Assembly (NCBI GenBank): GCA_049999805.1
Contig: JBNGIO010006336.1
Location: 283,347 to 331,480 of the forward strand
DNA length: 48,134 nucleotides
Reading direction: 5' to 3'
Origin: Folioceros fuciformis
Lineage: Eukaryota
The translations under genes and the position numbers were made by a program. The first letter of the stretch is position 1. Each line of letters begins with the position of its first letter. The notes beneath the pieces were generated by a model, which searched no databases, was not told the DNA's origin, and saw nothing but the letters and a program-made list of their open reading frames with translations. Shown here one piece after another: positions 21,727 through 42,853 of this stretch.

Positions 21727-22676
21727 GAGCTGTGCCAGCGAGCACAGCTTGCGAAATTGGAGGTTGGCAGTTGCATCTTCACACTGTCTTCCTTCGTGGA
21801 CGTACTGAGCTTTCTGAGAGATGTTTGAGAGCTTTCTTTTTGTTTTGAACTTCCAAGGCTGGGCTGCGTAGATTCGAACACTCATCAGGTTTGTTGGTCC
21901 CTTTCAAACCGAAGGTCATAAGAACGCGTGATGCCTATTAGTACGTGAGTAGTATGTAAGCTTCACGTGATTCTGTGAAGCACCCTTGGGGAGCTGCGAC
22001 GAAGCAAGCAAAAGGAGTCTTTGAAAGTGCACCTGCAATCTGAAGCCTTGTGTGCGTGGATATACTTCCCGGATCTCTGTCTTACATGCATTTGTACTTG
22101 ACTCGTGAAAGGACTCTTGGTACTTGGCTACAATGGAAATGAAAGGTTCCAGTCATCTGCATCCGCCTCGGGCGGGGGGCTCGCTTGTGGTCTGTTGATC
22201 GGTGACCCAGGGGCTCCTACTATCGTAAGCTATCATTTAAAACGCACAGACCGTACATGAGTTCACCCTTGCTCATTAAAAAACATGATAGTCCTCGGTT
22301 AGTTGAGCGGGATGCTCGTTTCCCGGGACAAAGGGGCAAAATCCTTTCCGAATGGTTTATCGCTCATGGAATCGAACGTCGTGATTAGGAGGCTTGGATT
22401 GGTACTTCAAATGACGGGGTTGCATTTTATGGTACAGGAGTCCTTGAGTGGAAAAATCCGTCCTATTCATCTATGTATTTATTTATTTCGTTCGGTTAGC
22501 GAGTTCCGAGGAAGACGAGAGGATCTAGCCAACCAGGGCAGCTGTGTAGAACCGAAACAGTAGCGAAAAACCCTGCATGCCCGAAGCACACGTATCCCAT
22601 ACATACGTATAAATAGAACGACTGCGACTTGGCAAACTCCCTTGACGTTCGTTCCCTGGAGACTAGGAAAGCCAAG

Positions 22677-25600
22677 ATGGCGTCTAGAGACGATGACGAG
22701 CATGAGGAGGTGGTAGAGGAGCAAGAAGAGCGGGAAGGGAAAAAGCAAGAGGACCAGGAAGAGGAGGAGGTAGAGGCAGAAGAAACGCCGTCTCGAAAGC
22801 GGAAGAAGCAGAAGGCTCCAGCTTATGTTCACGACGCGGCTGAGGAGGATGACGATGAGGAGGAGGAAGAAGAGCGAGCCAGGAGGAAACGTCGAGTGCG
22901 GCGCGCCTCAGAATTCATCGATGACGCAGCCATTGATGCCAGTGACGAGGAGGAGGAGGAGCTAGACGAAGAAGAAGAAGGTCCCGGGCTGTGACAGCTA
23001 GCGCCCCGCCTTCGCTCGCCCGGAACGGGGCGGCCGCTGCCGTGTCACGGGATGGAAGAAGCGGCCTGATTCCTGCCTCTGCTGCAGGTTTCCTGGACGA
23101 CGGAGGAGCTGAGCTGTCGGGAGACGAGGAGCCTGCCCGACGCAGGCCGCACCGGATGCTGCTGCCTGACGACCAGGAGGAGGAGGAGGACGTCGAGGAT
23201 TTGGAAAATTTCATCAGACAACGGTACCACGGTTGCCAATCCTACGAGGAGGATGAAGAGGAAGTACCCATGGTGTTGGAGCAGCAGGCTCTGCTGCCGT
23301 CGCTCACGGATCCCAAGCTGTGGATGGTCAGATGCAAGGTAAGAGATGGTGGCGTTTGGCTGGGATTTGCGGAGTGAAGGACCAGCCTGAGGGAGTTTCT
23401 GAGAAGTCGTGACGCCCGTTCTGTGTGCAGGCGGGACATGAGCGTGAAGCTGTTGCTTGCCTCATGCAGAAGTCCCTGAATCTGAAACGGCAGGGCGAAC
23501 CACTGGCCATCACGTCTGCCATTGCGCGTGACAATGTCAAGGGATATTTCTACGTGGAGTCGGAAAAAGCGGCTTACGTGAGGCAGGTGTGCGCCTTGCA
23601 AGTCCGGCCAGCTCATGCTCTCGGTCGGTAGGTGGATGCTTGTGTGGAGGGAGTAGGTGATAGTGTTGTGATGTTGTGGATGGCAGGCAATCAAAGGCAT
23701 GAGGATGATTTTGCAGGGCAAAGTCGCGCTCGTTCCCATCAAGGAGATGGTAGACGCGCTGAAAGTGGACAAGAAGACCATCGATACTGCCAACAGTAGC
23801 TGGGTCAGGATAAAGGGTGGCAAGTACAAAGGTGACCTGGCGAAGGTGGGGTGGTTGGTCTCCTTTCCTTATTACGCTGCATTTCAAAACAGCGGGTCAC
23901 AATCAGATTGTGTATTGCTGGAATCAGGTAGTGAATGTGAATCATGCGAAGCAGAGGATGAGGGTTATGCTGATCCCCAGACTTGATCTGCAAGGTCTTG
24001 CTGCTAAGCTCCAGGTAAGGCGTGTGCCTACGAATTGGAGGTATTTTGTATTGCTCTCTTCACTCGAGACAGACCCTTCACTACCCTTACTGCAAATGCT
24101 TCGTTTCAAAATTGCCTTGCAGGATACTGGAGGGCACAGGTACAGAACGAAGACTTTGATACCGGCTCCACGACTCTTGAGCGTTGAGGAGCTGAAGTAG
24201 GCCACCCCACCCTATCTCTGCACTCTCTCTGCCTAACTTGTTCGCGCAGCAGGTTCAAGCCGCTGTGTCAACCTGATTCAAACCTTTGCTGCTGTGCAGA
24301 GATATGAAATTCTCTGTGGAGCGTAGGCGTGATAGATGGACAGGAGAACTCTTTCATGTTTTCAATGGATTGACTTTTAAGGATGGTTACCTCTACAAGA
24401 TGGTCTCTCTGAATTCTGTGGATAGGACTGTGATCCCGACTTTTGATGAGCTGCAGAAATTCCACAAACCTGGAGAAGATATCAGTGTAGATGCCCTGGG
24501 GCTTCCTTCAGCCCTTTCCTCAAAGCGAATGGGCAAGTTGGTCAAAGGCGATCCCGTTGTGATTATCGAAGGAGACTTGAAGAATTTGCTGGGATATGTG
24601 GAAGAGACTCATGGAAACATTTTACACATTCGTCCAAAGGATTTGTCGCTAAAGGTAATTTATGTTCCCGAATTCTATTATATTATTTTGATTTTGGTTT
24701 CCAAGTTTGTGTTCGTTTTTCGAGGAAGCCTAGACGCCTACCGCTGCTGTGACAAATTTTTCAGAATCCAAAAGGTGGTGGACTAGCCACTTAGTCGTCG
24801 TACGATCGACCATCTTTAGTTCGGCCAACAGGGACCGGGGCGTTTCCACTAGTATGCAGGATCCAGCAGATTGGTTGACACGGTATTTCACTCCCCTGTG
24901 ATGTGACAGGAAACAATTGCTGTGAATGAGTCACAAGTGCGTAAATTCATCAATACTGGAGATCATGTGAAGGTGATCAGAGGGGTTCATTTAGGATCTA
25001 CTGGAATGGTGGTAAAGGTGAACCACCCTTCAGTGTTTCTTCTGACTGATACCACAAAGGAGGATGTAAGTGACGCTGTGGACCATTGGGATTTCCGTGT
25101 TCACGGCATGTGGACTTAAGATCTGGATCCAATAATGCTCGTGGAATGCTCCGACAGATTCGAGTTTTCACATCTGATGTACTGAAGAGCTCAGAGGTCA
25201 CAACAGGCCTTTCGAAGTTGGGGGATTATGAGACACATGACCTTGTTCTACTGGAGTAAGATGATGTTTTGCATGCATTCCAGTAATTGCCAAAATTCCG
25301 ATATCCTCTGATGAAGAACTGTTGTTTGGTTTTGTTGGGCAGTCAAGGCACTGTGGGTATCATCATTAATGTAGAGCCAGATGGTTGTCAGGTATCAAGA
25401 AAATGTGAAGCACTGCTTCTTGCTACTTGCCCCTCAAGGTTTTCTGTTGAATCCTATGATTGAGTCTTGTATTGTCATGGACTGACCCTTCGCAGATTCT
25501 GAAGGGCAACACCGAAAAGGCAGAGGTGATAACAGTTAAGGAGAGAAATATCAGGAAGAAAATCTATGACAGACGGGCATATGCTGCCGATAAGGACGGG

Positions 25601-28514
25601 AATATGATCAGTGTGAAAGACATTGTAAGAGTGCGTGATGGCTGCCACAAGGTACTTCTTTGCCTAACGCAAGCTGTGAGTGTTCACTTCTGGTAGACAT
25701 CAGTCTCCAATCTTCTGTCTTGCTTTAGCTGATGCAAGTGATGTACAGGGTAGACAAGGGCCGGTAGTACACATAAACCGTGGCATCTTATTTATATACG
25801 ATCGACATGGTTTAGAGAACGGTGGCTTCTTTTGTGTGCAATCACATAGCTGTGCTGCACTTGGTGGTACGAGAATGGGGAAAGAGCGGCTGGTAAGTCC
25901 TTCGTTATGTGTGTTAAGCGTGCTGAAGATGCTGCGCAAACACTGTTGGCCGTTCTGTTCGGACCCTAATGATGTCTGAACTTGCTTTGTTGATTCCATC
26001 GGGGTTTGGTTTTGACGACGCTGACTGGATCGGATTGGCATTGGGAAAATGTGTCTGCAATTCAACGTGTCTGCAACTCTGGACGGTCTTGAAGAAATCC
26101 GTCACCTCAACCTTCAGCGACCAACATCCTCCATCTTACTGCCTTAATTTGCCGCGACGACCTCCTGTGCCGGATGTTTATCAACCTCTTACCGGTAGGT
26201 TGAGTGGATTTCAACTGGTCTTCTGCAGCCACTTATGATGTGCCTACATGGACCAACTTTTTTGACATAAAAATTGTCTGCACGGTTCGGAGGATGTCAT
26301 GGTGGCCGAAATAGGGGCCATTCTCTAAGGGATGAAGGGCTACTTGGGAGCACAGCCAAAATAAGATCGGGGCCCTTCAAAGGTTGCCGAGGCATTGTAA
26401 AGGATGCCACGAGCACCACTGTTCGAATTGAGTTAGAGTCTCAAATGAAGGTAGTTACAGGTAAGCTTTTGTGTCGTCCTTCGAGTGTTTGTCCAAGAAG
26501 TGTTCAAAACTCTCATCTGCCTAATTCTGAGGTGCTGTTTATGTCGGATTTTGTGTCTGAGCCTGATGTTTGGCAGTGCGTAGAGATCAGGTCTCAAACA
26601 TTGGTGACGTGCCCATGGCTTCGACCACCTTCGGGTATGTGCTACTGTGATGTAGTGCTAGGCAAAAGCTCGGAAGGATCTCTTGTCGGAACCGTTTTCA
26701 TCCTCTAGGTTATACTTGCAGGGACTCACCTAGATATGGACTTGGTAGTGAAACGCCTTGTCACCATTCCAGGACACCCATCCATCCAGGCTCCTTCGTG
26801 ACTCACAAGCGGGATCCATCAGGTGAGCGTGCTCAATTTTGTTGTGTCGACATAGCGTTGCCTATGTATGATCATGGTGTGATATTCCTTATCTCACAGC
26901 AACCCCCATTCACGAGGGTATGCGGACGCCAATGCTGGGTAGAGCTTGGAACCCACATGCGCAACTGACTCCTTTGAGGTTTGTATTCCTAGCATCTTCA
27001 GGGTAATGGACCCATATTTTGTACAGCATTTCCCTCTTGCTGACTGTACACGTCGAGTCTGCGGCTCGTAGCCTGCTGGTCCATCGGCTGGTTTGTGTCA
27101 TCTGTGCATGCCTCTCCTAGGAACTGTAAGGCTGCCTGACTGTAGAGTGTCGTTGAGTCAGATTCTTAACAAGTGCTGATCTCAAGTGTGTATCTCTATC
27201 CTATGTCTGTCCTCTGATGTAAACTCAAAACTGGTGATCTTGGAACATAGAGTGGTGGCAGGCTCCCATGACCCTCCCTTTTGCTCTCGTTGTTTATTTT
27301 CTCTCCCCACCCCCCTATGGTCTTGCGTCTTGTAAGTCAGGGACCACCTGCCACTAACCGCTGATGCTCCAGCTATGAGAGCTGAGGACAAAGTCAGGAT
27401 TAAAACTTGGATTATGCTTTGTTGGCACCTAGGCGGCACCAATTTGTTGAGACCGGGTTTGAGTGTCTGTGTTGGTTTTGAGCAGGGATAATTCTTGGGA
27501 TGATTCCAATTCGAGCACATGGAACGCCTGTACACCACGTAGTCAGGTGCCACACATTACGCTGGGAATCACGTTATCAGGTATAATGTCTGTCTGCGAC
27601 CACCTGGGTGATCATAATTGTACTTGTATTTGCAACAGCCTGGAACACCTGGTGCGAGTATACCTGGACCGAGCTACAAGGGAGCTAATCCTGAAAGTTC
27701 TTTGAGCAGTTACGGTACAGCTCTATTCAGTTTCCTATGCTTCAGCCTGGCGACTTCCTTGCCTGGCAGAGAATGCTTTCTGATGCCTCTACTTAACGTG
27801 CGTGTTTGCATTCAGGAAACGGTCCAAGTGGACACATGTCAGGGCCTGGTGGTCCACCCATGACGTGTGGTGCCCCGACTTTCCACCTCCCTGGTACTTC
27901 TGGTCAGCCAATGACTACAGGCACAGGATCTGTGGAACCTCTATCACCAGTATCAGGTTGGTTTCTCGTCAGTTACGGGAAGTGTGGGAAAATGGGGTTG
28001 GAATGCTGCTGAAGCGTATGCGGTGATTTGTCCAACAGGAATGAGCAGCCACGATGCAGAGGGGAGGTGGGGACTTCCAGACATTATGGTTATGGTTTGC
28101 CCGCATGGTGTCGGAGTCATTCGCGAAGTCTTGACGGTGAGTGACTTGCAGTATTGCACGCACGTTATTCATGCATGTGATCCCTCTTCGGTGGAGAAGA
28201 TGACAGTTTGCACTCTGCGGTACAAACAGGATGGCAACTGCACCGTGCAACTGGGAACGGCTGGTGATGGTGAGATCATCATTGCAAGCCACACGGAAAT
28301 GGTAGGAGTATCACCAGACAGCACAGACACGGTGAAAATTGTCTTGGGCGAACTTCGAGGCAGCGTTGGGAAGTTAATCGGCGTGGATGGCGCTGATGGA
28401 ATTGTGAAGCTAAATTCGTCAGATGTAAAGATCCTTAATATCAGTCAGCTGGGAAAAATGTTGGCTACACCCTGTGACCCATCCACGACTCTTCTGCCGT
28501 GTCAGCGGAAGTAG
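22677..28514 (+). CDS. SPT5: Transcription elongation factor SPT5, divergent tandem copy A
   Basis: Acidic N-terminus, NGN domain (QQALLPSLTDPKLWMVRCK, GYFYVESEK), KOW domains (WVRIKGGKYKGDLAK, LMLIPRLD-type, GDHVKVIRG, KIRSGPFKGCRG), eroded CTR and C-terminal KOW (GKLIGVDGADGIVK). Exon structure is colinear with copy B. One acceptor reads AC instead of AG (26282-26283). Confidence 0.88.
24674..24852 (+). mobile_element. Putative non-autonomous Helitron in an intron of SPT5 copy A
   Basis: Segment absent from the matching copy-B intron. It begins TCTATTATATTAT and ends with an imperfect GC hairpin followed by CTAG|T. Similarity to copy B resumes right after it (GCAGGATCCAGCAGAT vs GTAGGATACAGCAGAT). 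Confidence 0.45.
27208..27390 (+). ncRNA. Intronic box C/D sno/scaRNA (SNORD97/SCARNA97-like), predicted guide for Cm34 of pre-tRNA-Met(e); copy A
   Basis: Terminal stem TGTCC/GGACA; box C CTGATGT (27214-27220); internal hairpin AGTGGTGGCAGGCTCCC...GGGACCACCTGCCACTAACCGCT around a pyrimidine-rich loop; C' CTGATGC; guide AGCTATGAGA(G); box D CTGA (27382-27385). Conserved with copy B. Confidence 0.8.
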
Positions 28515-29348: not shown

Positions 29349-30983
29349 CCAACACACACTACATCGATAGATCATCATAGCTTTGTTGATCCCAAGCTAG
29401 TTGATTGATTACAAATACAAAGAAGAAGAGAGAAATAGCAAGGACTTGTAGCTATGAAGCTTCTTTAGTGGAAAAGAGGCAAGGTCTTGTCCATTCCTTC
29501 ATTCTTGTGTACAGAGCAATGCTCTTTATATTGTAGTTGAAGGAGGTTTCTAAAATTACAAATGTCTTGAGACCATTGTTACCCTTTCACATGCTATATC
29601 CTACTTAGCCTAGAGGACCATATGGCACCAAGCTTCATTAGCTTCATTGCTTGTTGTGAATAGTTCAATTAAAATGAGCTAGCCATGCAATTCACTTCAT
29701 GCACTTGCAACAACTAGTGGACGAGTCTACGATTCAATGGCATTGAACGATCCCCAATTTTAGAAGGCTAGGCCAAACCACAAGAAGATACACCCTCTTG
29801 TTGGATACAATGACTAATTTGAGCTAAAATTGAAACCATATTTATTTAATTATGATAAAAAGAGTAGGTGCAATGTTAGGATTTGAGATCCATGTTCTTT
29901 TCAAAGTTACGTAGCCACAATGAATGACTTCTTTCCATGACTTCTAGTATGACAAAAAGTATTTCACCAAATCATTTGCAAAGAGAATTTTTAACATTCA
30001 TCTTTTCTTTTATGGTTTTGCTGAAAAAAGAAGTAGTATTCAAATAATTAAAATTAATTTTTTTTTTGTCTCACATAATTTCTCTTAACTTAAAATAAAA
30101 CATTTTCAATTCGATAAAAAAAACCAATAATTTTAAGGGTTTAAAATTAATTTACCTTGGAATGCCTTTTAAATCAAGAAGTTCAAATTGTTCACGAGTT
30201 AAAGAAATGATAAAATATTAAGAATCAATTGAAGGAGTTAAAAAAAAAAAAGTGAAATTATAAATATGTAAGGCATGGCTTTTCTTTATACCTTTAAAAA
30301 TTTGCAAACCACTAACTTTACGATTACATCACAATCCACCGCAAACAAATTCACAAATTTTATATTAAAGCATAATGTAAACAAGAGGTATAAGTTATAG
30401 TATAACTTTTAAAAAATGAATGATAAATAATTTATAAATAAAACTATATAAAAGATGAAAATTGGATGAAAATTGTATCTAAATCTACCCCAAGGATGAA
30501 GAGGAACAAGTGAAAGAAAGCCAAAAGCCAGAAAGGGACTTATCAAGGAGTGTTTGCCATTCCCAAAACTACCTAGGGTTTCATGGCTGCAATGCGTGCA
30601 TTACTGAATGCCGATGATCCAGGTGAGGTGAGGGAACTCCAAGGAGAAGAAGGTTTGGTGCAGACTGTGCAACTATGGATGCTGCGACTTCACCCGCCCA
30701 GGACCTAAAACTCCAAGACCAAGCTTCATGGTGGAGCCGACATGGGCAAAAGGCAGCCTCTGTGCAACCATGGATGCTCGCGACTTCCCCGGTCCAGGAC
30801 CTAAAACCCCGAACCAACCTAAGTTGTAACGTGTAGGATAATACCGTCGCAACGTCTGTTTAGGAGCAAGCGGAGCTTAAAATTTCTGCCTCTGGGCGGT
30901 AGGTGCCCGTTGCTGTACATCCGGGCGGCCATGGGGGTAGAAGCTCTTGGTCTCTGAGTGTGCGTGAGTCTGACGGAGCAGGA

Positions 30984-33766
30984 ATGGCGTACAAGGACGA
31001 GGAGGAGGAGGAGGAGGAGGTGGCGGAAGAGGTAGAAGAGGAGGAGGAAGAGGAGGAGGAGGAGGAGGAAGAGGATGAAGAAGAGAGGTCGTCCCGCAAG
31101 AGGAAGAAGCACAAGGCGGCAGCGTACATTGACGATGTGGCCGAAGAGGATGACGACGAGGAGGAGGAAGAAGAGACAGCCAGGAGGAAACGGCGAGTGC
31201 GGCGCGCGTCCGAGTTCATCGATGACGCGGCCATTGATGCCAGTGACGAGGAGGAGGAGGAGGAGGACGAAGAAGAAGAAGGTGCTGGCGGGGAGTTTGA
31301 TTCCTTGTTGCCTTTGCTGTGCTTGCTCTGTGCGGCCGGAAGAGAGCAACCGACCTGATGCGTGACTCTGCTGCAGGGTTCCTGGACGACAGAGGAGCTG
31401 ACCTGCCGGACGAAGTGGTGCCTACCAGCCGCATGCCGCACCGGAATCTGCTACCTGGAGACGACCAGCAGGAGAACGTGGATGATTTGGAAAATTTCAT
31501 CAAGCAACGCTACGGCGGTGGGCACGACTACGGGGAGTACGAGGATGCGGAGACCACGGAGGTGGAGCAGCAGGCTCTGCTGCCGTCGATCAAGGATCCC
31601 AAGCTGTGGATGGTCAGGTGCCAGGTATGAAGTGGTGGCTTTCCGCTCAGATGGCGGCGCCGAAAGGTAAAGTTGCGCAACTCTTCTCAAAAGTTGTCGC
31701 GGCTGTTGAGTGTGCAGGTGGGACATGAGCGTGAAGCTGCTGTCTGCCTAATGCAGAAGTATCTGGATCTGGAGCACCAGGGCCAATCACTGTCCATCAA
31801 GTCCGCCATTGCGCTTGACCACCTCAAAGGACTGTTCTATGTGGAGTCGGAGAAAGAGGCTTACGTGAGGCAGGTGTGTGGCTTGCAATTCTGCTTAGGG
31901 CCAGCCCTCGGTAGTTAGAGAGACTTGAGTATTCACTTCGTGTGGAGCAAGTAGGCGATGGTATTAAGATGTTGTGGATAGCAGGCTATCAAAGGAATGC
32001 GGATGATCTTTCAGAGCAAAGTCACTCTCGTTCCGATCAAGGAGATGACAGATGTGTTGTCAGTGGAGAAGAAGACCATTGACATTGCAAACGAGAGCTG
32101 GGTCAGAATAAAGAGCGGCGTCTACAAAGGTGACTTGGCAAAGGTAGGGTGGTTGGCGCGTTTTGCATACTATTCTTCGTTTCAAGACTTTTCACCAAGA
32201 GGAGCTGAAAATTCCATCGTGTGTTGCTGGAATCAGGTTGTGGACGTGGATCATGTAAAGCAGAGGGTGAGGGTTATGCTGATCCCCAGGCTTGATCTGC
32301 AAGCTCTTGCTGCTAAGCTCCAGGTAAGGTATGTGCCTACTAATTGGAGTTATTATGTGTTGGTCCCTTCATTCAGGGCGGGCATATCACGATCCACACT
32401 GAAAGCGGGTTTTCCTAACTTGACATGCAGGATGATAGAGATGATAGGGACAAAAAGAAGACTTTAAGACCAGCGCCACGATTTTTGAACGTTGAGGAGC
32501 TCAAGTGGGCCATCCCTCTCTCTTCCAGGACGTCTCTTGTTCATGCAGCACGTTCAAGCTGCCGCATCAATCTGAGCCAAATTGTTGCTGCCTTGCAGAG
32601 ATATGAGAATCCCTGTGGACCGTAGGCGTGATGGAGCAACGGGAGAACTCCTCGATGTTTTCAATGGGATGACTTTCAAGGATGGTTACCTCTACAAGAT
32701 GGTCTCTCTTAAGAGTGTGGATACCAACGTGGTCCCAACTTTTGATGAGCTGCAGAAATTCCAGAAACCTGGAGAAGATGGCAGTATAGATGCAATGGGG
32801 CTTCCTTCAGCCTTGTCCTCAAAGCAGAGGGGCAAGCTGATGAAAGGTGATGCTGTTGTGATTATCGAAGGGGACTTGCAGAATTTGATGGGATATGTGG
32901 AAAAGGTGGATGAAAACACAGTATATATCCGTCCAAAGGATTTGTCGCTGAAGGTAATTTTTTATCTCTAGTTGGTTTTTTTATCCACTTCTCTGTAGGA
33001 TACAGCAGATCACTTGACAGTAGGCGATGAACTCTCTGATGAAGACTTTGCTCAATGAACGCTTTGATGTGACAGGAAACAATTGCGGTGAATGAGTCAC
33101 AAGTGCGGAAATTCTTCAAGACCGGGGATCATGTGAAGGTGATCAGAGGGGCTCATTTAGGATCTACGGGAATGGTGGTTAAGGTGAACCACCATTCAGT
33201 GGTTCTTCTGAACGACACCACGAAGGAGGATGTAAGTGGCTTCATGCACCAGTGGGGTTTACATGTTCGTGTCGTGTGGACTTGGATCACGGCCCAACGA
33301 TGCTTGTGCAATGCTGTGACAGATTCAAGTCTTCACAGCGGATGTAGTGGAGAGCTCAGAGGTCACAACAGGTCTTTCGAAGTTGGGGGATTATGAACTA
33401 CATGACCTTGTTCTACTGGAGTAAGATCATGTTTGCCTCCATTCCAGTAATTGCCCAAATTTCAATACTCTCTGATGCGGGAGGGTTGTTTGGTTCTGTT
33501 TGGCAGCCAAGCAACTGTGGGTGTCATCATCAGGGTCGAGCCAGATGGTTGTCAGGTATCAAGAAGATCAAAAGCACTGGTTCCTGTTACTTTCTCCTCA
33601 AGGGTTTGTGGTGAATCAGATGGTTAACTCTTGTTGTGGGTTGGAGTGACCTGTTGCAGATTCTGAAAGGCAACACTGAAAAGGCAGAGGTGATTACTGT
33701 TAAGCAGAGGGACATGAGGAAGAAAATCTTTGACAGGAAGGCATATGCTGCTGACGGGGATGGGAA

Positions 33767-33812
<46 letters not shown>

Positions 33813-36688
33813 AAGGTACTTCTTCTGTACAGTGGAAGGTGTGATTATTCTCTTGTTGACATCAGTCAGCTATCTTCAGTCTTGGTGTAGCTGATGCATG
33901 TGATGTACAGGGAAGACAAGGACCAGTGGAGCATATCAACCGCAGCATCTTATTTATATATGATCGGCATCACTTAGAGAATGGTGGCTTTTTTTGTGTC
34001 CGATCACAGGCCTGTGTTGCTCTTGGTGGTACAAGAAGTGGGAATGAACGAGTGGTACGTCCTCTGTTATATTTGTTGAGCCTGTAGAGGATATTGGTTA
34101 AACAGGAGGGTTGTCTGGTTTTTGGACCCTAACGATGTTTGAGCCTGCCTTGATGATTGCATTGGGGTTCGGGTGTGATGATTGTGTTCGGGAATCTGGA
34201 TGATGTCCTTCCATTTTATCCTGTCTGTAACTGTGAATGATGTTTGGAAATATTGTAGAAAGCTGTCACTTCAAGTTTCAGCGACCTACACCCTCCATCT
34301 CGGTACCTTCAGTCACCACGGCGAACTCCTCTGCGGGATGTTTATCAACCTCAAGGTGGTGGGTCCTGTGCATTTGAGTTGTCTTCTGCAGCCCGCCATC
34401 TGTGATGTGCATGGTTTCCCAGGTGGAGCAGAGTTACTGAAAGGATAGTCTGCAGGCTTTGGAGGAGGTTATGGTGGCCGAAATGGGGGTCATGCCCGAA
34501 GAGATGAGGGGCTCGTTGGGAGGACAGTAAAAATAAGATTGGGACCGTTTAAAGGTTACCGGGGCCGTGTAAAGGATGCTACCAGCACCACTGTTCGAAT
34601 TGAACTAGAGTCTCAAATGAAGGAGGTAACAGGTAAGCCTCTGTTTTGGTGAAAATGTTTGCTCACAACTTCAAACTGCCCGGGAGGTGCGCTCTATGTA
34701 GTATTTTGAGTCTTACCGTGTATCTGATGTGGCAGTACGGCGAGATCAACTCTCAGACATTGGGGACATGCCTATGGCTTCGAGTTCCTTCAGGTGTGTG
34801 CTACTTTCATGTACTCAAGTTAGTAGCAGGGAAAGATGGCTTGTTGGCAGAATTTTCACCTTCTAGTTTCTACTTGCAGGGAATCACCTAGATATGGACT
34901 TGGTAGTGAGACACCTATGCATCCTTCCAGAACTCCCATGCATCCAGGCTCCTTCATGACTCCCATGCGGGATCCATCAGGTTAATATGACTAATTACTC
35001 TGGCCGTGTTGACGTGACCTTGAATTTGTATGATCAATGCCCTGATGGTTCTTGTTTCGCAGCAACTCCTATTCATGAGGGGATGCGGACGCCAATGCGG
35101 GATAGAGCTTGGAACCCACATGCTCAAATGACTCCTTTGAGGTTTGTGTTTCTAGCATCTTGCCCAGGTTGTACACAGGATTCATTTCTTGCCCACTGTC
35201 CACTTCAGTTCTGTTGTTCTGAGCCTGCTGTGCCATTGGCTTCTTAGTATATGTGAATGCATCTATTAGGACTGCTTTGCTGCCTGACTGCAGAGTGTTG
35301 TAGAGCCGGGTGCTTCACAAGCTCCCAATCCTCAGGCCCCTGGAAGTTTTATCTTATGTCTGTCCTCTGATGTAAACTCAAAAACTGATGATCTTTGATC
35401 ACAGAGTGGTGGCAGGCTCCCCTTTCCCCTCGCTTTTTTCCTTTTCGTTCTATTACTTCTCTTCTCGTTCTATTTTCTGTTTCCCCGGTCTTTTGTCTTT
35501 TAAGTCGGGGATCACCTGCCGAGAACCACTGCTGATGTTCTAGCTATGAGAGCTGAGGACAAAGTCTGGATTAAAACTTGGATCATGCTTTGCGGGCGTC
35601 AAGGTGGTAGGACCTTGCTTAGTCTGGGTTCGAGTGTCTGTGTTGGTTGTGGACAGGGATAATTCTTGGGATGATTCCAATCCGAGCACATGGAATGCGT
35701 CTACACCACAGTATCAGGTGCCACATATGATATACGAATCACACTATTAGGTTTATTATTTGTCTGCGAACACCTGGGTGATAATACTTGTACTTCTATG
35801 TGCACCAGCCTGGAACACCTGGTGGGCGGCCGTATGAAGCGGCAACACCTGGTGCTAGCTGGGCGAGCACACCTGGACCTAGCTACAGCGAAGCTACTCC
35901 TGAAAGCTCTGTGCGCAGTTATGGTATGGCGCACACTCCGTTTCCTGTGCTTCAGCGTGTTGAGTTCCTTGCCTGGCAGGGATATGCATTCTGGTCCTAT
36001 TTTTGACGTGTGTGTTCACTCCCAGGAAACGCTCCAAGTCCATACATGTCAGGGCCTGGTGGCCCACCAATGACTCCTGGTGCCCCCGCATTCCTCCTCC
36101 CTGGTACTCCTGGCCAGCCAATGACTCCAGGCACTGGGTCCCTGGAACCTCCGTCACCAGCGTCAGGTTGGTTATTCCTACTTTGAAGCGGATTGTGATA
36201 ATCTGGGTTGGATTTGGCACTGAAGTGTATGCGGTGTTTTTTGTCCGACAGGAGTGAGCAGCCACGACGCAGAGAGCAAATGGGGACTTCCAGACGTTAT
36301 TGTTACGGTTCGAGCTCATGGTATTGGAGTCATTCGCGAGGTTTTAATGGTGAGACACTGCAGTAGTGCTTGCGTGCGGTCGGGCATACATTTGATGCTT
36401 GGTTTTTTGGAAAAGGTAACAATTTTCATTCTGAACAAACAGGATGGCAACTGCACCGTGGCATTAGGAATGGCTGGTGACGGTGAGACTATCATTGCTA
36501 GCCACACGGAAATGGAACTCGTATTACCTAAGAAGACGGACAAGATTAAGATTGTCTTGGGTGAACTTCGTGGCAGCACCGGAAAGTTGATTGGCATCGA
36601 TGGTGCCGATGGAATAGTGAAGATGGACGAGACTCTTGATATTAAGATTCTAGATATGAGTAATCTTGGGAAAATGCTAGCGACGTAG
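30984..36688 (+). CDS. SPT5: Transcription elongation factor SPT5, canonical copy B
   Basis: Acidic N-terminus, NGN (QQALLPSIKDPKLWMVRC, ALDHLKGLFYVESEKEA), KOWs (FKTGDHVKVIRG, KIRLGPFKGYRGRV), plant CTR (SETPMHPSRTPMHP...TPMRD, TPIHEGMRTPMRDRAWNP, PGTPGQPMTPG), C-terminal KOW (PKKTDKIKIVLGELRGSTGKLIGIDGADGIVK). One exon carries a 44-nt poly-A that looks artefactual. Confidence 0.95.
35361..35561 (+). ncRNA. Intronic box C/D sno/scaRNA (SNORD97/SCARNA97-like), predicted guide for Cm34 of pre-tRNA-Met(e); copy B
   Basis: Stem TGTCC/GGACA; box C CTGATGT (35367-35373); D'-like CAGA; hairpin AGTGGT-GGCAGG-CTCCCC / GGGGA-CCTGCC-ACCACT closing a ~80-nt C/T-rich loop; C' CTGATGT; guide TAGCTATGAGA (35541-35551); box D CTGA (35553-35556). 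Confidence 0.82.
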
Positions 36689-37249
36689 AAAGACCACCCG
36701 TTGCCCGTACCTCCATCGGCTGCATCAAGTATGTTGGATGTCTTTCGTGATGGATTACTTTATAATTTTGAGTATGTCCACAGTTTCGTTCGATGTCGTT
36801 CCGCACTGCCGAGTACCATGACGTGGATGTGGTGTAATTTAACAGATGGATGGAGGCTATCAATTAGGGGGTTTCAAATCTAGGCCGTTGCTCAAAACAT
36901 ATCAGCCTCATTTCCAGGCCGCATCGGGTCTGATCCTCTAGCTCAACCCGAATCAGTCCATTCAATCATGAGTTCCCGCTTCGAAATTGTTGTCACATTG
37001 CGTATATGTCTCGCCTGTTGCACACCAGTTTGCGTGACCAGAAAACATTGCACACACACCAGTTCGAGGCAGGTAGCATCGGTACCGCTCAAAATTTGAA
37101 TATGTGGCTGGTGGTGCTTGCGTTGCACACTGAAAACTAGCGGCCTCCTCTAGCTGCATGATGAAAACTTGCAACCTCCTCTCGTTACACGCCAGAAACT
37201 TAAGTGGCCTCGGATCCGCATAGTGATCCGCTCCTCAACTATCACAAAT

Positions 37250-41800: not shown

Positions 41801-42853
41801 ATACTTCTCATGTTTTGCGCCTTGCATGATGTACCGATGGATATCATGGTGGAGCACAGGAAGGAGGGAGTGCGTTACCTGACCTGAATGTTGTTGACTC
41901 TAATGTTGTTGTTCAGACTGATGTGCTAGAAATGCCTAACCTATAGGATGTAATGGTGCAAAGCACGACTTGCAGTGTGACACCTAGCTTAAGGCACTCT
42001 AGAAATGTGAAAGAGTTCAAGCTGAAAAGACGTTGAGACTTGGATGTAATATGTAGGAATATTCTAAGCATGGTGAAAGCAAAGCCTGATATTTTTTTTG
42101 AGGTTTGTGCAATAATGCCCTTGTCATGTTGCTTTAGGCCTCGTCTATCCAAGCCACAACCTTCCTTATATCATGGAATTGGTCCCAAACAATGGAACGA
42201 ACAGGTTGGTACGATTTGGAGTCGTTGAAGAATGGTCATGGCCAAGGAAGAAGAAAGGCACTCGGCAATTGTAGAGGATACCACTACGTCATGATACTTG
42301 TAGTGGTTTTATTTAAACTACTAGGTTGGGGAGGAGATTGTTTTGCTCATTCTGTGTTTCAATTTTTGTTTGTTGGATATAAGTTTTTGGTTGATGTGTA
42401 GCTGGGCTACATTGATGTTTAATGTGGTTGTGATATTGGTCAGCTGGTGTGGTGTTTAGCCGGATTGCTTTGGTGTTCAATCAGGATATGATGGTGTCCA
42501 GCTGATTTAGTGTTCAGCTCGGCTGATTTTATGTTCAGTCGGGCTGTGCTTATCAAGCCGGCTATTTTCTCTTTTCATTAATAGAAAATAGATTTATGTT
42601 ATTAAGATAATAATCTTCAAACTCATTCTATTCTTCCCATGTGCCCAATCCATGGAATGCCGACGCTGTACGACAGCACACATTTGAATTAGGTCGATAC
42701 ACAATTTGAATATCTTGCGGGACGAGGGTGGGATGACCTACTTGAGCTCCTCAACGTTGGAGAGATCGTCGAGTTGATCTCCAAGTCTTGGGAGAAAGCA
42801 TTGAGTCCGTCCTGTCTCCAAAACAACAGTAGCTCCCTACTAGGCTGTTGAAA

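Follow-up and report, generated by a model that had tools for sequence, protein, structure and literature searches.

Introduction

Human cells contain two intronic box C/D RNAs, SNORD97 and SCARNA97, whose D guides direct a 2'-O-methyl group to the wobble cytidine (Cm34) of the elongator methionine transfer RNA (tRNA-Met), and SCARNA97, which is 216 nucleotides (nt) long, depends for its location in the Cajal body on a pyrimidine-rich insert of 93 nt, described in the main text of that paper as without parallel in other small RNAs and unique to vertebrate SCARNA97 (PMC6601510). The same main text names one candidate of this family each in Arabidopsis and rape, drawn in Supplemental Fig. S3C, and its word "intron" (8 occurrences) refers only to host genes (PMC6601510). 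In this work we have analyzed a 48,134-nt stretch of DNA from Folioceros fuciformis (GCA_049999805.1, contig JBNGIO010006336.1, positions 283,347 to 331,480 of the forward strand), referred to below as the window, in which an intron of the gene for SPT5 holds a probable member of the same kind, here called unit B. A second copy, unit A, lies in a neighboring SPT5 gene. An initial annotation of the window had predicted that unit B methylates C34 of the unspliced tRNA-Met precursor; its statements that the human RNAs guide Cm34, that SCARNA97 has a polypyrimidine element and that similar guides had been predicted in angiosperms are all borne out by the main text of PMC6601510.

RNA-guided methylation of this nucleotide is also found in archaea, where sR-tMet, to go by the title under which it is cited, is a box C/D guide for C34 2'-O-methylation of the haloarchaeal elongator pre-tRNA(Met) (PMC6601510, PMC4033218). 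It is unlike unit B in being an archaeal small RNA (sRNA) that works with the proteins aFib, Nop5 and L7Ae and has no pyrimidine-rich module. The haloarchaeal pre-tRNA(Met) target in the study of Joardar et al. of 2011 is said to carry its intron, and sR-tMet itself is reportedly about 75 nt long and encoded by a free-standing gene. Two papers on archaeal guides describe an intron of pre-tRNA-Trp which guides Cm34 and Um39, and a Pyrococcus sRNA aimed at position 34 of tRNA-Met (PMC7994747, PMC4033218). Archaeal pre-tRNA-Trp and unit B are alike in that RNA-guided methylation of the wobble position, predicted in the case of unit B, is tied to a precursor which bears an intron; in the archaeal case the guide is the tRNA intron itself, whereas unit B would be a separate guide RNA with the tRNA intron in its target. 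Eukaryotes are known to have intron-dependent tRNA modifications of the protein-only type, namely pseudouridine 35 of tRNA-Tyr and m5C34 made by Trm4 (PMC6850298, PMC13578239). These resemble the proposal for unit B in needing the unspliced precursor, which makes the tRNA intron functional, and differ from it in that stand-alone enzymes read the structure of the precursor, whereas unit B would be a base-pairing guide RNA.

To our knowledge, a short intron is kept in just two nuclear tRNA families by all land plants and many algae. The reason is known for tRNA-Tyr, where it is pseudouridine 35; none is established for elongator tRNA-Met. In flowering plants and Physcomitrella the intron of the latter separates position 37 from position 38 (PMC3531208), and it occurs also in streptophyte, green and red algae (PMC13578239). 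In rice it is about 17 nt long and opens, over 15 genes, with a conserved G-C-T-A, rice tRNA introns being preceded by A (passages of PMC5492330 on tRNA introns). The initial annotation had placed the plant intron after position 37 and let it begin with GCU, and it is supported in this by PMC3531208, PMC13578239 and the GCTA given for rice in the said passages of PMC5492330. According to a review of 2026, whether the Cm34 mechanism operates in plants "remains unknown", and the same is said of the role of the tRNA-Met intron (PMC13578239).

A box C/D unit in an intron of SPT5

Unit B has the element order characteristic of box C/D RNAs, with one guide between boxes C and D' and the other between boxes C' and D (Table 1). 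Its box C (cUGAUGU) departs from the RUGAUGA consensus at the first (R) and last position. The layout described in the initial annotation, with terminal stem, boxes C and D', a hairpin-closed polypyrimidine loop and boxes C' and D, agrees with the sequence, and the description is correct in every detail that could be checked; the terminal stem, present as UGUCC/GGACA, is 5 base pairs (bp) long, the 7 bp given earlier having included the GA of box D. The same stem is found in homologs hosted by the gene for ribosomal protein eL38, described below. A UGAUGA at 35386-35391 was dismissed as the true C' box because it overlaps box D'.

Table 1. Features of the guide RNA units and their host genes in the window (window coordinates)
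Feature	Position	Strand	Remarks
Box C/D RNA unit B	35361-35561	+	201 nt; read from sequence, alignment, pattern count and RNAalifold
Terminal stem, unit B	35361-35365 with 35557-35561	+	UGUCC pairs with GGACA; 5 bp
Box C, unit B	35368-35373	+	UGAUGU; invariant in alignment A1 together with the AAAC after it
D' guide, unit B	35374-35384	+	AAACUCAAAAA; 11 nt
Box D', unit B	35385-35388	+	CUGA
Small hairpin 3' of box D', unit B	35390-35400	+	GAUC-UUU-GAUC
Long-range stem, 5' strand, unit B	35405-35422	+	AGUGGU GGCAGG .. CCCC
Pyrimidine-rich loop, unit B	35423-35506	+	closed by the long-range stem
Long-range stem, 3' strand, unit B	35507-35530	+	GGGG .. CCUGCC GAGA ACCACU
Box C', unit B	35533-35538	+	UGAUGU; from sequence and alignment A1
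D guide, unit B	35539-35552	+	UCUAGCUAUGAGAG
Box D, unit B	35553-35556	+	CUGA
Host intron, SPT5 gene B	35142-35656	+	515 nt; GT..AG; upstream exon ends ...MTPLR, downstream exon starts DNSWDD...
Unit A (second copy)	27208-27390	+	183 nt; guide CUCCAGCUAUGAGAG; degenerate box D' (CUGG); absent from the initial annotation
Host intron, SPT5 gene A	26979-27485	+	507 nt; homologous to the gene B intron
Tandem SPT5 paralogs	about 22640-28470 and 30900-36690	+	guide RNA in the same intron of each

The D guide is the part that points to a target. Its positions 2-12, counted from box D, are the exact complement of UCUCAUAGCUA, and G35548, the fifth base upstream of box D, stands opposite C34 of tRNA-Met(CAU). 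Against UCUCAUA (tRNA positions 31-37) continued by GCUA (intron bases 1-4), a target put together from papers and the initial annotation rather than from this genome, the guide of unit B forms 11 contiguous pairs; the four pairs with GCUA are made by guide bases 9-12, which read AGCU (5' to 3') at 35542-35545. The spliced tRNA offers it only 7 contiguous pairs. The guide selects the C of the CAU anticodon and runs on as the complement of GCUA, just as the initial annotation had claimed. CAU is the methionine anticodon, and U33 is universal. Read outward from box D, the conserved guide consists of one variable base and then AGAGUAUCGAU (3' to 5'), which faces U31-C32-U33-C34-A35-U36-A37 and after these G-C-U-A.

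Relatives in metagenome contigs

The pattern TGATG-N(1-10)-AGCTATGAGA-N-CTGA matches twice in the window and not once in 100 shuffled versions of it, and the architecture of the unit recurs in unrelated contigs. We found the latter in a single scan of metagenome contigs with the same pattern, in which AGCUAUGAGA-N-CUGA, and with it guide positions 9-11, was fixed and the U at position 12 was left free. The scan returned 45 loci, about as many as are expected by chance, and a whole box C/D unit is present in nine of them.

Three of the nine (L021, L034, which is truncated by the contig end, and L037) have the architecture of the window copies. Common to them are a box C with AAAC after it, CUGAUGAUC and the GAUC hairpin, the GUGGUGGCAG strand of the stem, a long loop rich in pyrimidine, box C' with UUUAGCUAUGAGAG and box D, and a stem that reads CUGUCC/GGACAG. 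L034 has SPT5 exons downstream of the unit, and L021 is an SPT5 ortholog (16 collinear tblastn matches, 52-81% identity) in which the unit is flanked by the two exons that also flank unit B. A comparison of orthologous SPT5 introns across streptophytes had been proposed in the initial annotation; the unit is in the same intron of L021, and the core elements are invariant in an alignment, A1, of four sequences (the window copies winA and winB, L021 and L037).

The units of five other loci (L003, L014, L028, L030, L044) are shorter, about 165 nt, and come in two or three tandem copies. They have a UGUCCC/GGGACA stem, a variant box C (GUGAAGA or GAUGAAGA) and guides ending AAUAGCUAUGAGAU or UUAGCUAUGAGAU, and a long internal hairpin replaces the pyrimidine-rich loop. 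An exon for eL38 lies just upstream in four of the five (L014, L028, L030 and L044; Pfam Ribosomal_L38e with E 1e-33 to 2e-19 in the three exons tested), which indicates that the guide family changed its host gene between plant lineages. The ninth, L023 (13003-13258, minus strand), lies in a eukaryotic contig of 27% G+C; UGCACC/GGUGCA closes its CU-rich loop, and its guide, UUUAGCUAUGAGAU, likewise covers a GCUA intron start. Between lineages there is no variation in box C, in the GUGGUGGCAG strand of the stem, in box C' and UAGCUAUGAGAG, or in box D and the terminal stem; intron flanks and loop cannot be aligned.

The other 36 loci showed no box C together with a terminal stem, and most of those that were inspected resemble coding DNA. 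L007 was excluded from the family, having a pyrimidine-rich stretch upstream yet no box C; L009 and L041 were rejected, with only a 5-bp chance-like match. In a separate scan of viral contigs for GGTCTCATAGCT..GTTCGA we obtained 12 loci and no pre-tRNA-Met. Nine of these matches coincide at their start with the 5' end of a tRNA annotated as Phe, Arg, Asp, Met, Asn or Pyl, which means that acceptor stem and D arm were matched and not the anticodon loop, and the other three loci are without any tRNA.

Does the guide read the unspliced precursor?

Within A1 the AGCUAUGAGAG of the D guide is invariant, and UAGCUAUGAGA is found in all homologs except copy A, where C replaces the first U. The U at guide position 12, opposite intron base 4, which the search had left free, is shared by window copy B and the nine homolog loci without exception; copy A has C there. 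Could the match to the intron nevertheless be incidental and the guide act on C34 of the spliced, mature tRNA, as in human cells? The human tRNA-Met target is without an intron, and the main text of PMC6601510 pairs the plant anticodon stem-loop with the SNORD97/SCARNA97 antisense elements and leaves tRNA introns unmentioned. We consider this improbable. No more than 7 contiguous pairs can form with the spliced sequence, and the AGCU of guide bases 9-12, which pairs only with GCUA, is found in all nine homolog loci and in copy B (with C at position 12 in copy A); positions 9-11 were fixed by the pattern, yet the U at position 12 was free and has been kept, and rice introns open with GCTA. Since the spliced tRNA gives only 7 pairs, methylation would have to precede tRNA splicing, and with pairing confined to the precursor the recognition site would extend over intron bases 1-4. 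The initial annotation had come to the same view from the difference between 7 and 10-11 bp, and it is supported by the retention of the junction-spanning part of the guide in every homolog found.

We attach little probability to a second alternative, in which unit B is a real box C/D RNA and its guide serves some other RNA containing UCUCAUAGCUA, be it ribosomal, small nuclear or messenger RNA, or in which it acts as a chaperone without methylation. In its favor, the target of the guide is a predicted one, and orphan small nucleolar RNAs (snoRNAs) are common (PMC7671301). On the other side, the match takes in precisely the anticodon loop of a tRNA with CAU, has C34 where methylation would take place and continues into the published intron start, and the human and archaeal counterparts target the same nucleotide. 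Beyond intron base 4 the guide varies by lineage (UC, UU, AA, AU, GUU). This fits the variable interior of a tRNA intron better than it fits a conserved ribosomal or small nuclear RNA target.

The D' guide was examined as a possible second functional guide and rejected as such. It reads differently in L021 and L037 (AAACAUUUCG), and box D' of copy A is a degenerate CUGG; because of these two features the D' guide is probably idle, to judge from the alignment. The GAUC-UUU-GAUC hairpin beside it is intact in winB, L021 and L037 and disrupted in winA.

Secondary structure and the pyrimidine-rich loop

On A1 we tested a structure of 26 pairs made up of the terminal stem, the small hairpin and a three-part long stem. 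Of the alignment cells, 92% are paired in this structure; a shift of the 3' partners by 1-3 columns brings the figure to 28-46%. In three of the pairs both sides are altered, as by a G-C to A-U change at the base of the stem that closes the loop, and the five terminal-stem pairs are invariant in all four aligned sequences. The same helices, the long-range stem among them, are predicted independently by RNAalifold.

The longest stretch with at least 80% pyrimidine in copy B measures 104 nt (35417-35520, 81% pyrimidine) and overruns both ends of the loop; the corresponding lengths are 71 nt in window copy A, 121 nt in L021, 152 nt in L037 and 60 nt in L023. Stretches of this kind of at least 60 nt occur in only 25 of the 960 200-nt tiles of the window (both strands), and the eL38-hosted homologs are without a long pyrimidine-rich region. 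The sequence of the loop is hardly conserved (47% between the paralogs); it is the composition of the loop that is kept, not its sequence.

RNA evidence

Run X1 is RNA, since its contigs skip GT..AG introns. These contigs are of the poly(A) type, and contigs cannot reveal where a small RNA begins and ends or how abundant it is. A 572-nt X1 contig spans 35113-35684 without a difference and at a depth of 27, compared with 112 and 166 in the adjacent bins that include exon; the only other wholly intronic X1 bin (34057-34207) has a depth of 0. A further X1 contig with a depth of 6.2 contains the 5' portion of copy A, together with flanks that are those of copy A itself. Both contigs extend past their units, which marks the signal as that of a precursor. 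Run X6 gave no coverage of the locus and run X5 covered exon parts only.

A third explanation, that there is no stable RNA and the conserved blocks are intronic elements that serve SPT5 splicing or regulation, such as a polypyrimidine tract along with protein-binding sites which control retention of the long intron, could draw on the unspliced intron at about one eighth of exon depth, on the approximately 45 nt 3' of the unit that are nearly identical between the paralogs and on an unremarkable folding energy, but it is very unlikely, for the same terminal stem and guide occur in other plants in a different host gene, eL38, as tandem copies, which is typical of snoRNAs and unexpected of an SPT5 splicing element, and all four boxes, like the terminal stem, stand in canonical order and spacing.

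Proposed function and comparison with the human RNAs

On the evidence of its sequence, unit B is a real, conserved box C/D RNA with a guide that is predicted to span an exon-intron junction. We think it likely that it is an intron-encoded guide RNA of the SNORD97/SCARNA97 kind which acts on the unspliced tRNA-Met precursor. All the steps that this would involve, from processing through assembly of the ribonucleoprotein to methylation, are modeled on the general working of box C/D ribonucleoproteins. Splicing of the SPT5 pre-mRNA would free the host intron, and unit B would be trimmed back to its terminal stem and would assemble with the box C/D proteins, fibrillarin among them. Bridging the 5' exon-intron junction of the tRNA-Met precursor, the D guide would then pair with its anticodon loop (tRNA 31-37 and intron 1-4, 11 pairs), and C34, opposite the fifth guide base, would receive a 2'-O-methyl group. 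The stem-closed pyrimidine-rich loop would be a separate module which, by analogy with SCARNA97, most likely binds a protein that sets the nuclear location of the RNA, that is, the Cajal body.

Several results weigh against this proposal. ARAGORN finds no tRNA gene in the window and none in 13 homolog and candidate loci, and U31 and C32 of the target are assumed bases, in line with the initial annotation. The C of copy A opposite intron base 4 leaves it 10 pairs with a GCUA intron. RNAalifold also predicts a 5-bp hairpin, UAGCU/AGCUG (35541-35555), inside the guide and box D, which could rival the pairing with the target; the hairpin is invariant, so that a covariation test is not applicable to it. 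The folding energy of unit B is unremarkable (z = -0.87; 39 of 200 shuffles fold equally well or better), and covariation in the stems gives modest but consistent support, to which only two to three lineages contribute. The 572-nt contig crosses both exon junctions and therefore represents unspliced pre-mRNA, not a mature RNA of about 200 nt. Finally, the window and 10 loci with homologs or candidates are without a match to any Rfam family at its gathering score, and membership in the SNORD97 family would be assigned by features that are function-like. The Rfam search proposed in the initial annotation gave no match to SNORD97 or SNORD133 at E-values up to 10, Rfam 15 not being confirmed to hold such a model. 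In E-value mode only sub-threshold matches were returned, to SNORD28 (18.9 bits, E 1.9) and to the archaeal sR41 (11.5 bits, E 3). The weak sR41 match spans 35544-35558, i.e. guide and box D, with CUAUGAG-NN-CUGA as the common core.

How close is unit B to the human RNAs? Like SNORD97 and SCARNA97 it is encoded in an intron in the sense orientation and has, as predicted, C34 at the fifth guide position. In size it is near to SCARNA97, with 201 nt and a 104-nt stretch of at least 80% pyrimidine against 216 nt and a 93-nt pyrimidine-rich region. The human hosts are EIF4G2 and LARP4, whereas that of unit B is SPT5, and the human target is intronless, whereas the guide of unit B would cross an exon-intron junction. 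No match by sequence or covariance model was obtained between them. Cajal-body location and Cm34 have been shown for the human RNAs in cells, whereas for unit B both are predictions. By size, layout and target nucleotide, unit B may be seen as the plant counterpart of SCARNA97.

The Arabidopsis and rape candidates presumably belong to the same family as the eL38-hosted copies (L003, L014, L028, L030, L044), and the predicted site of action is likewise C34 of tRNA-Met. Neither the long pyrimidine-rich form nor the SPT5 host of unit B is mentioned for these candidates in the main text of PMC6601510. In the literature that we searched, a long pyrimidine-rich form outside vertebrates, an SPT5 host and a host switch to eL38 are likewise not mentioned, and a plant guide that crosses the tRNA exon-intron junction, or serves as an explanation for retention of the intron, was not found in print (supplements lay outside the search). 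A text search for the guide or target motif returned only unrelated primers and small interfering RNAs.

The family and its job in human cells are already known, as is the guiding of Cm34 on the tRNA-Met precursor in haloarchaea, as far as the main text and titles cited above describe them. What is new here are the second copy in the window and the metagenome relatives and, as against the literature that we searched, the predicted junction-spanning guide, the SPT5 and eL38 hosts and the long pyrimidine-rich form outside vertebrates. A guide that pairs productively only with the unspliced precursor offers a hypothesis for retention of the tRNA-Met intron which can be tested by mutation, and docking of the guide on GCUA would explain why the first intron bases are conserved in rice, as described in the passages of PMC5492330. 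Perhaps, and we put this forward only tentatively, as something we rather doubt than expect, plants and their algal relatives keep the tRNA-Met intron because GCUA is one half of the docking site for the guide. As in haloarchaea, wobble methylation would then both be guided by RNA and depend obligatorily on the intron. Among eukaryotic tRNAs this would be the first such case, and it might be an ancestral state which animals lost together with the intron; the pyrimidine module shared with vertebrate SCARNA97 would be an ancient localization device and no vertebrate novelty. If true, this would connect a snoRNA mechanism of eukaryotes with the one that archaea have for the same nucleotide. A pyrimidine-rich module has now been found in plant-type members of two host lineages and in one AT-rich eukaryote, which bears on the nuclear sorting of box C/D RNAs. 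The family can also be annotated in plant genomes from now on, in the SPT5 intron in one lineage and beside eL38 exons in another.

The host gene and its paralog

The host gene was identified as SPT5 by the Pfam domains NGN, KOW1, KOW2, KOW6 and KOW7 in the surrounding exons. Spliced X1 RNA contigs stop at 35142 and resume with GATAATTCTTGGGATG, which sets the bounds of the host intron; the other GT..AG introns of gene B that are skipped in X1 contigs (n = 12) measure 82-204 nt. Unit B ends 95 nt before the acceptor, and the same distance separates unit A from the end of its own intron. The initial annotation had given about 510 nt for the host intron, shorter lengths for the others and about 95 nt to the acceptor, in good agreement with these values.

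The two SPT5 paralogs have 74-76% DNA identity, introns included, and both contain the SPT5 KOW domains. When their host introns are aligned, identity is concentrated in the parts of the unit: terminal stem, box C and AAAC are identical at 22 of 22 positions, guide core, box D and stem at 25 of 25, and the 5' strand of the long stem at 20 of 21, compared with 63% in the 5' intron flank, 47% in the loop and 77% in the 3' flank.

Beyond the terminal stem, about 45 nt directly 3' of both units (35557-35600 and 27386-27429) are nearly identical between the paralogs, and L021, L034 and L037 have a conserved 3' flank of their own in common, AAUAAUGAAGG. The near-identical flank may serve as a signal for processing or as the branch site; alternatively, the RNA may extend past the limits given here.

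Two minor observations concern gene B. A long run of A at 33756-33821, which would be a lysine run in one frame, coincides with a place where repeats were skipped in the placement of reads and the contigs appear to be cut. A 70-nt stretch at 32458-32526 is 79% identical to 42720-42789 on the opposite strand, some 10 kb downstream, and is possibly a small repeat.

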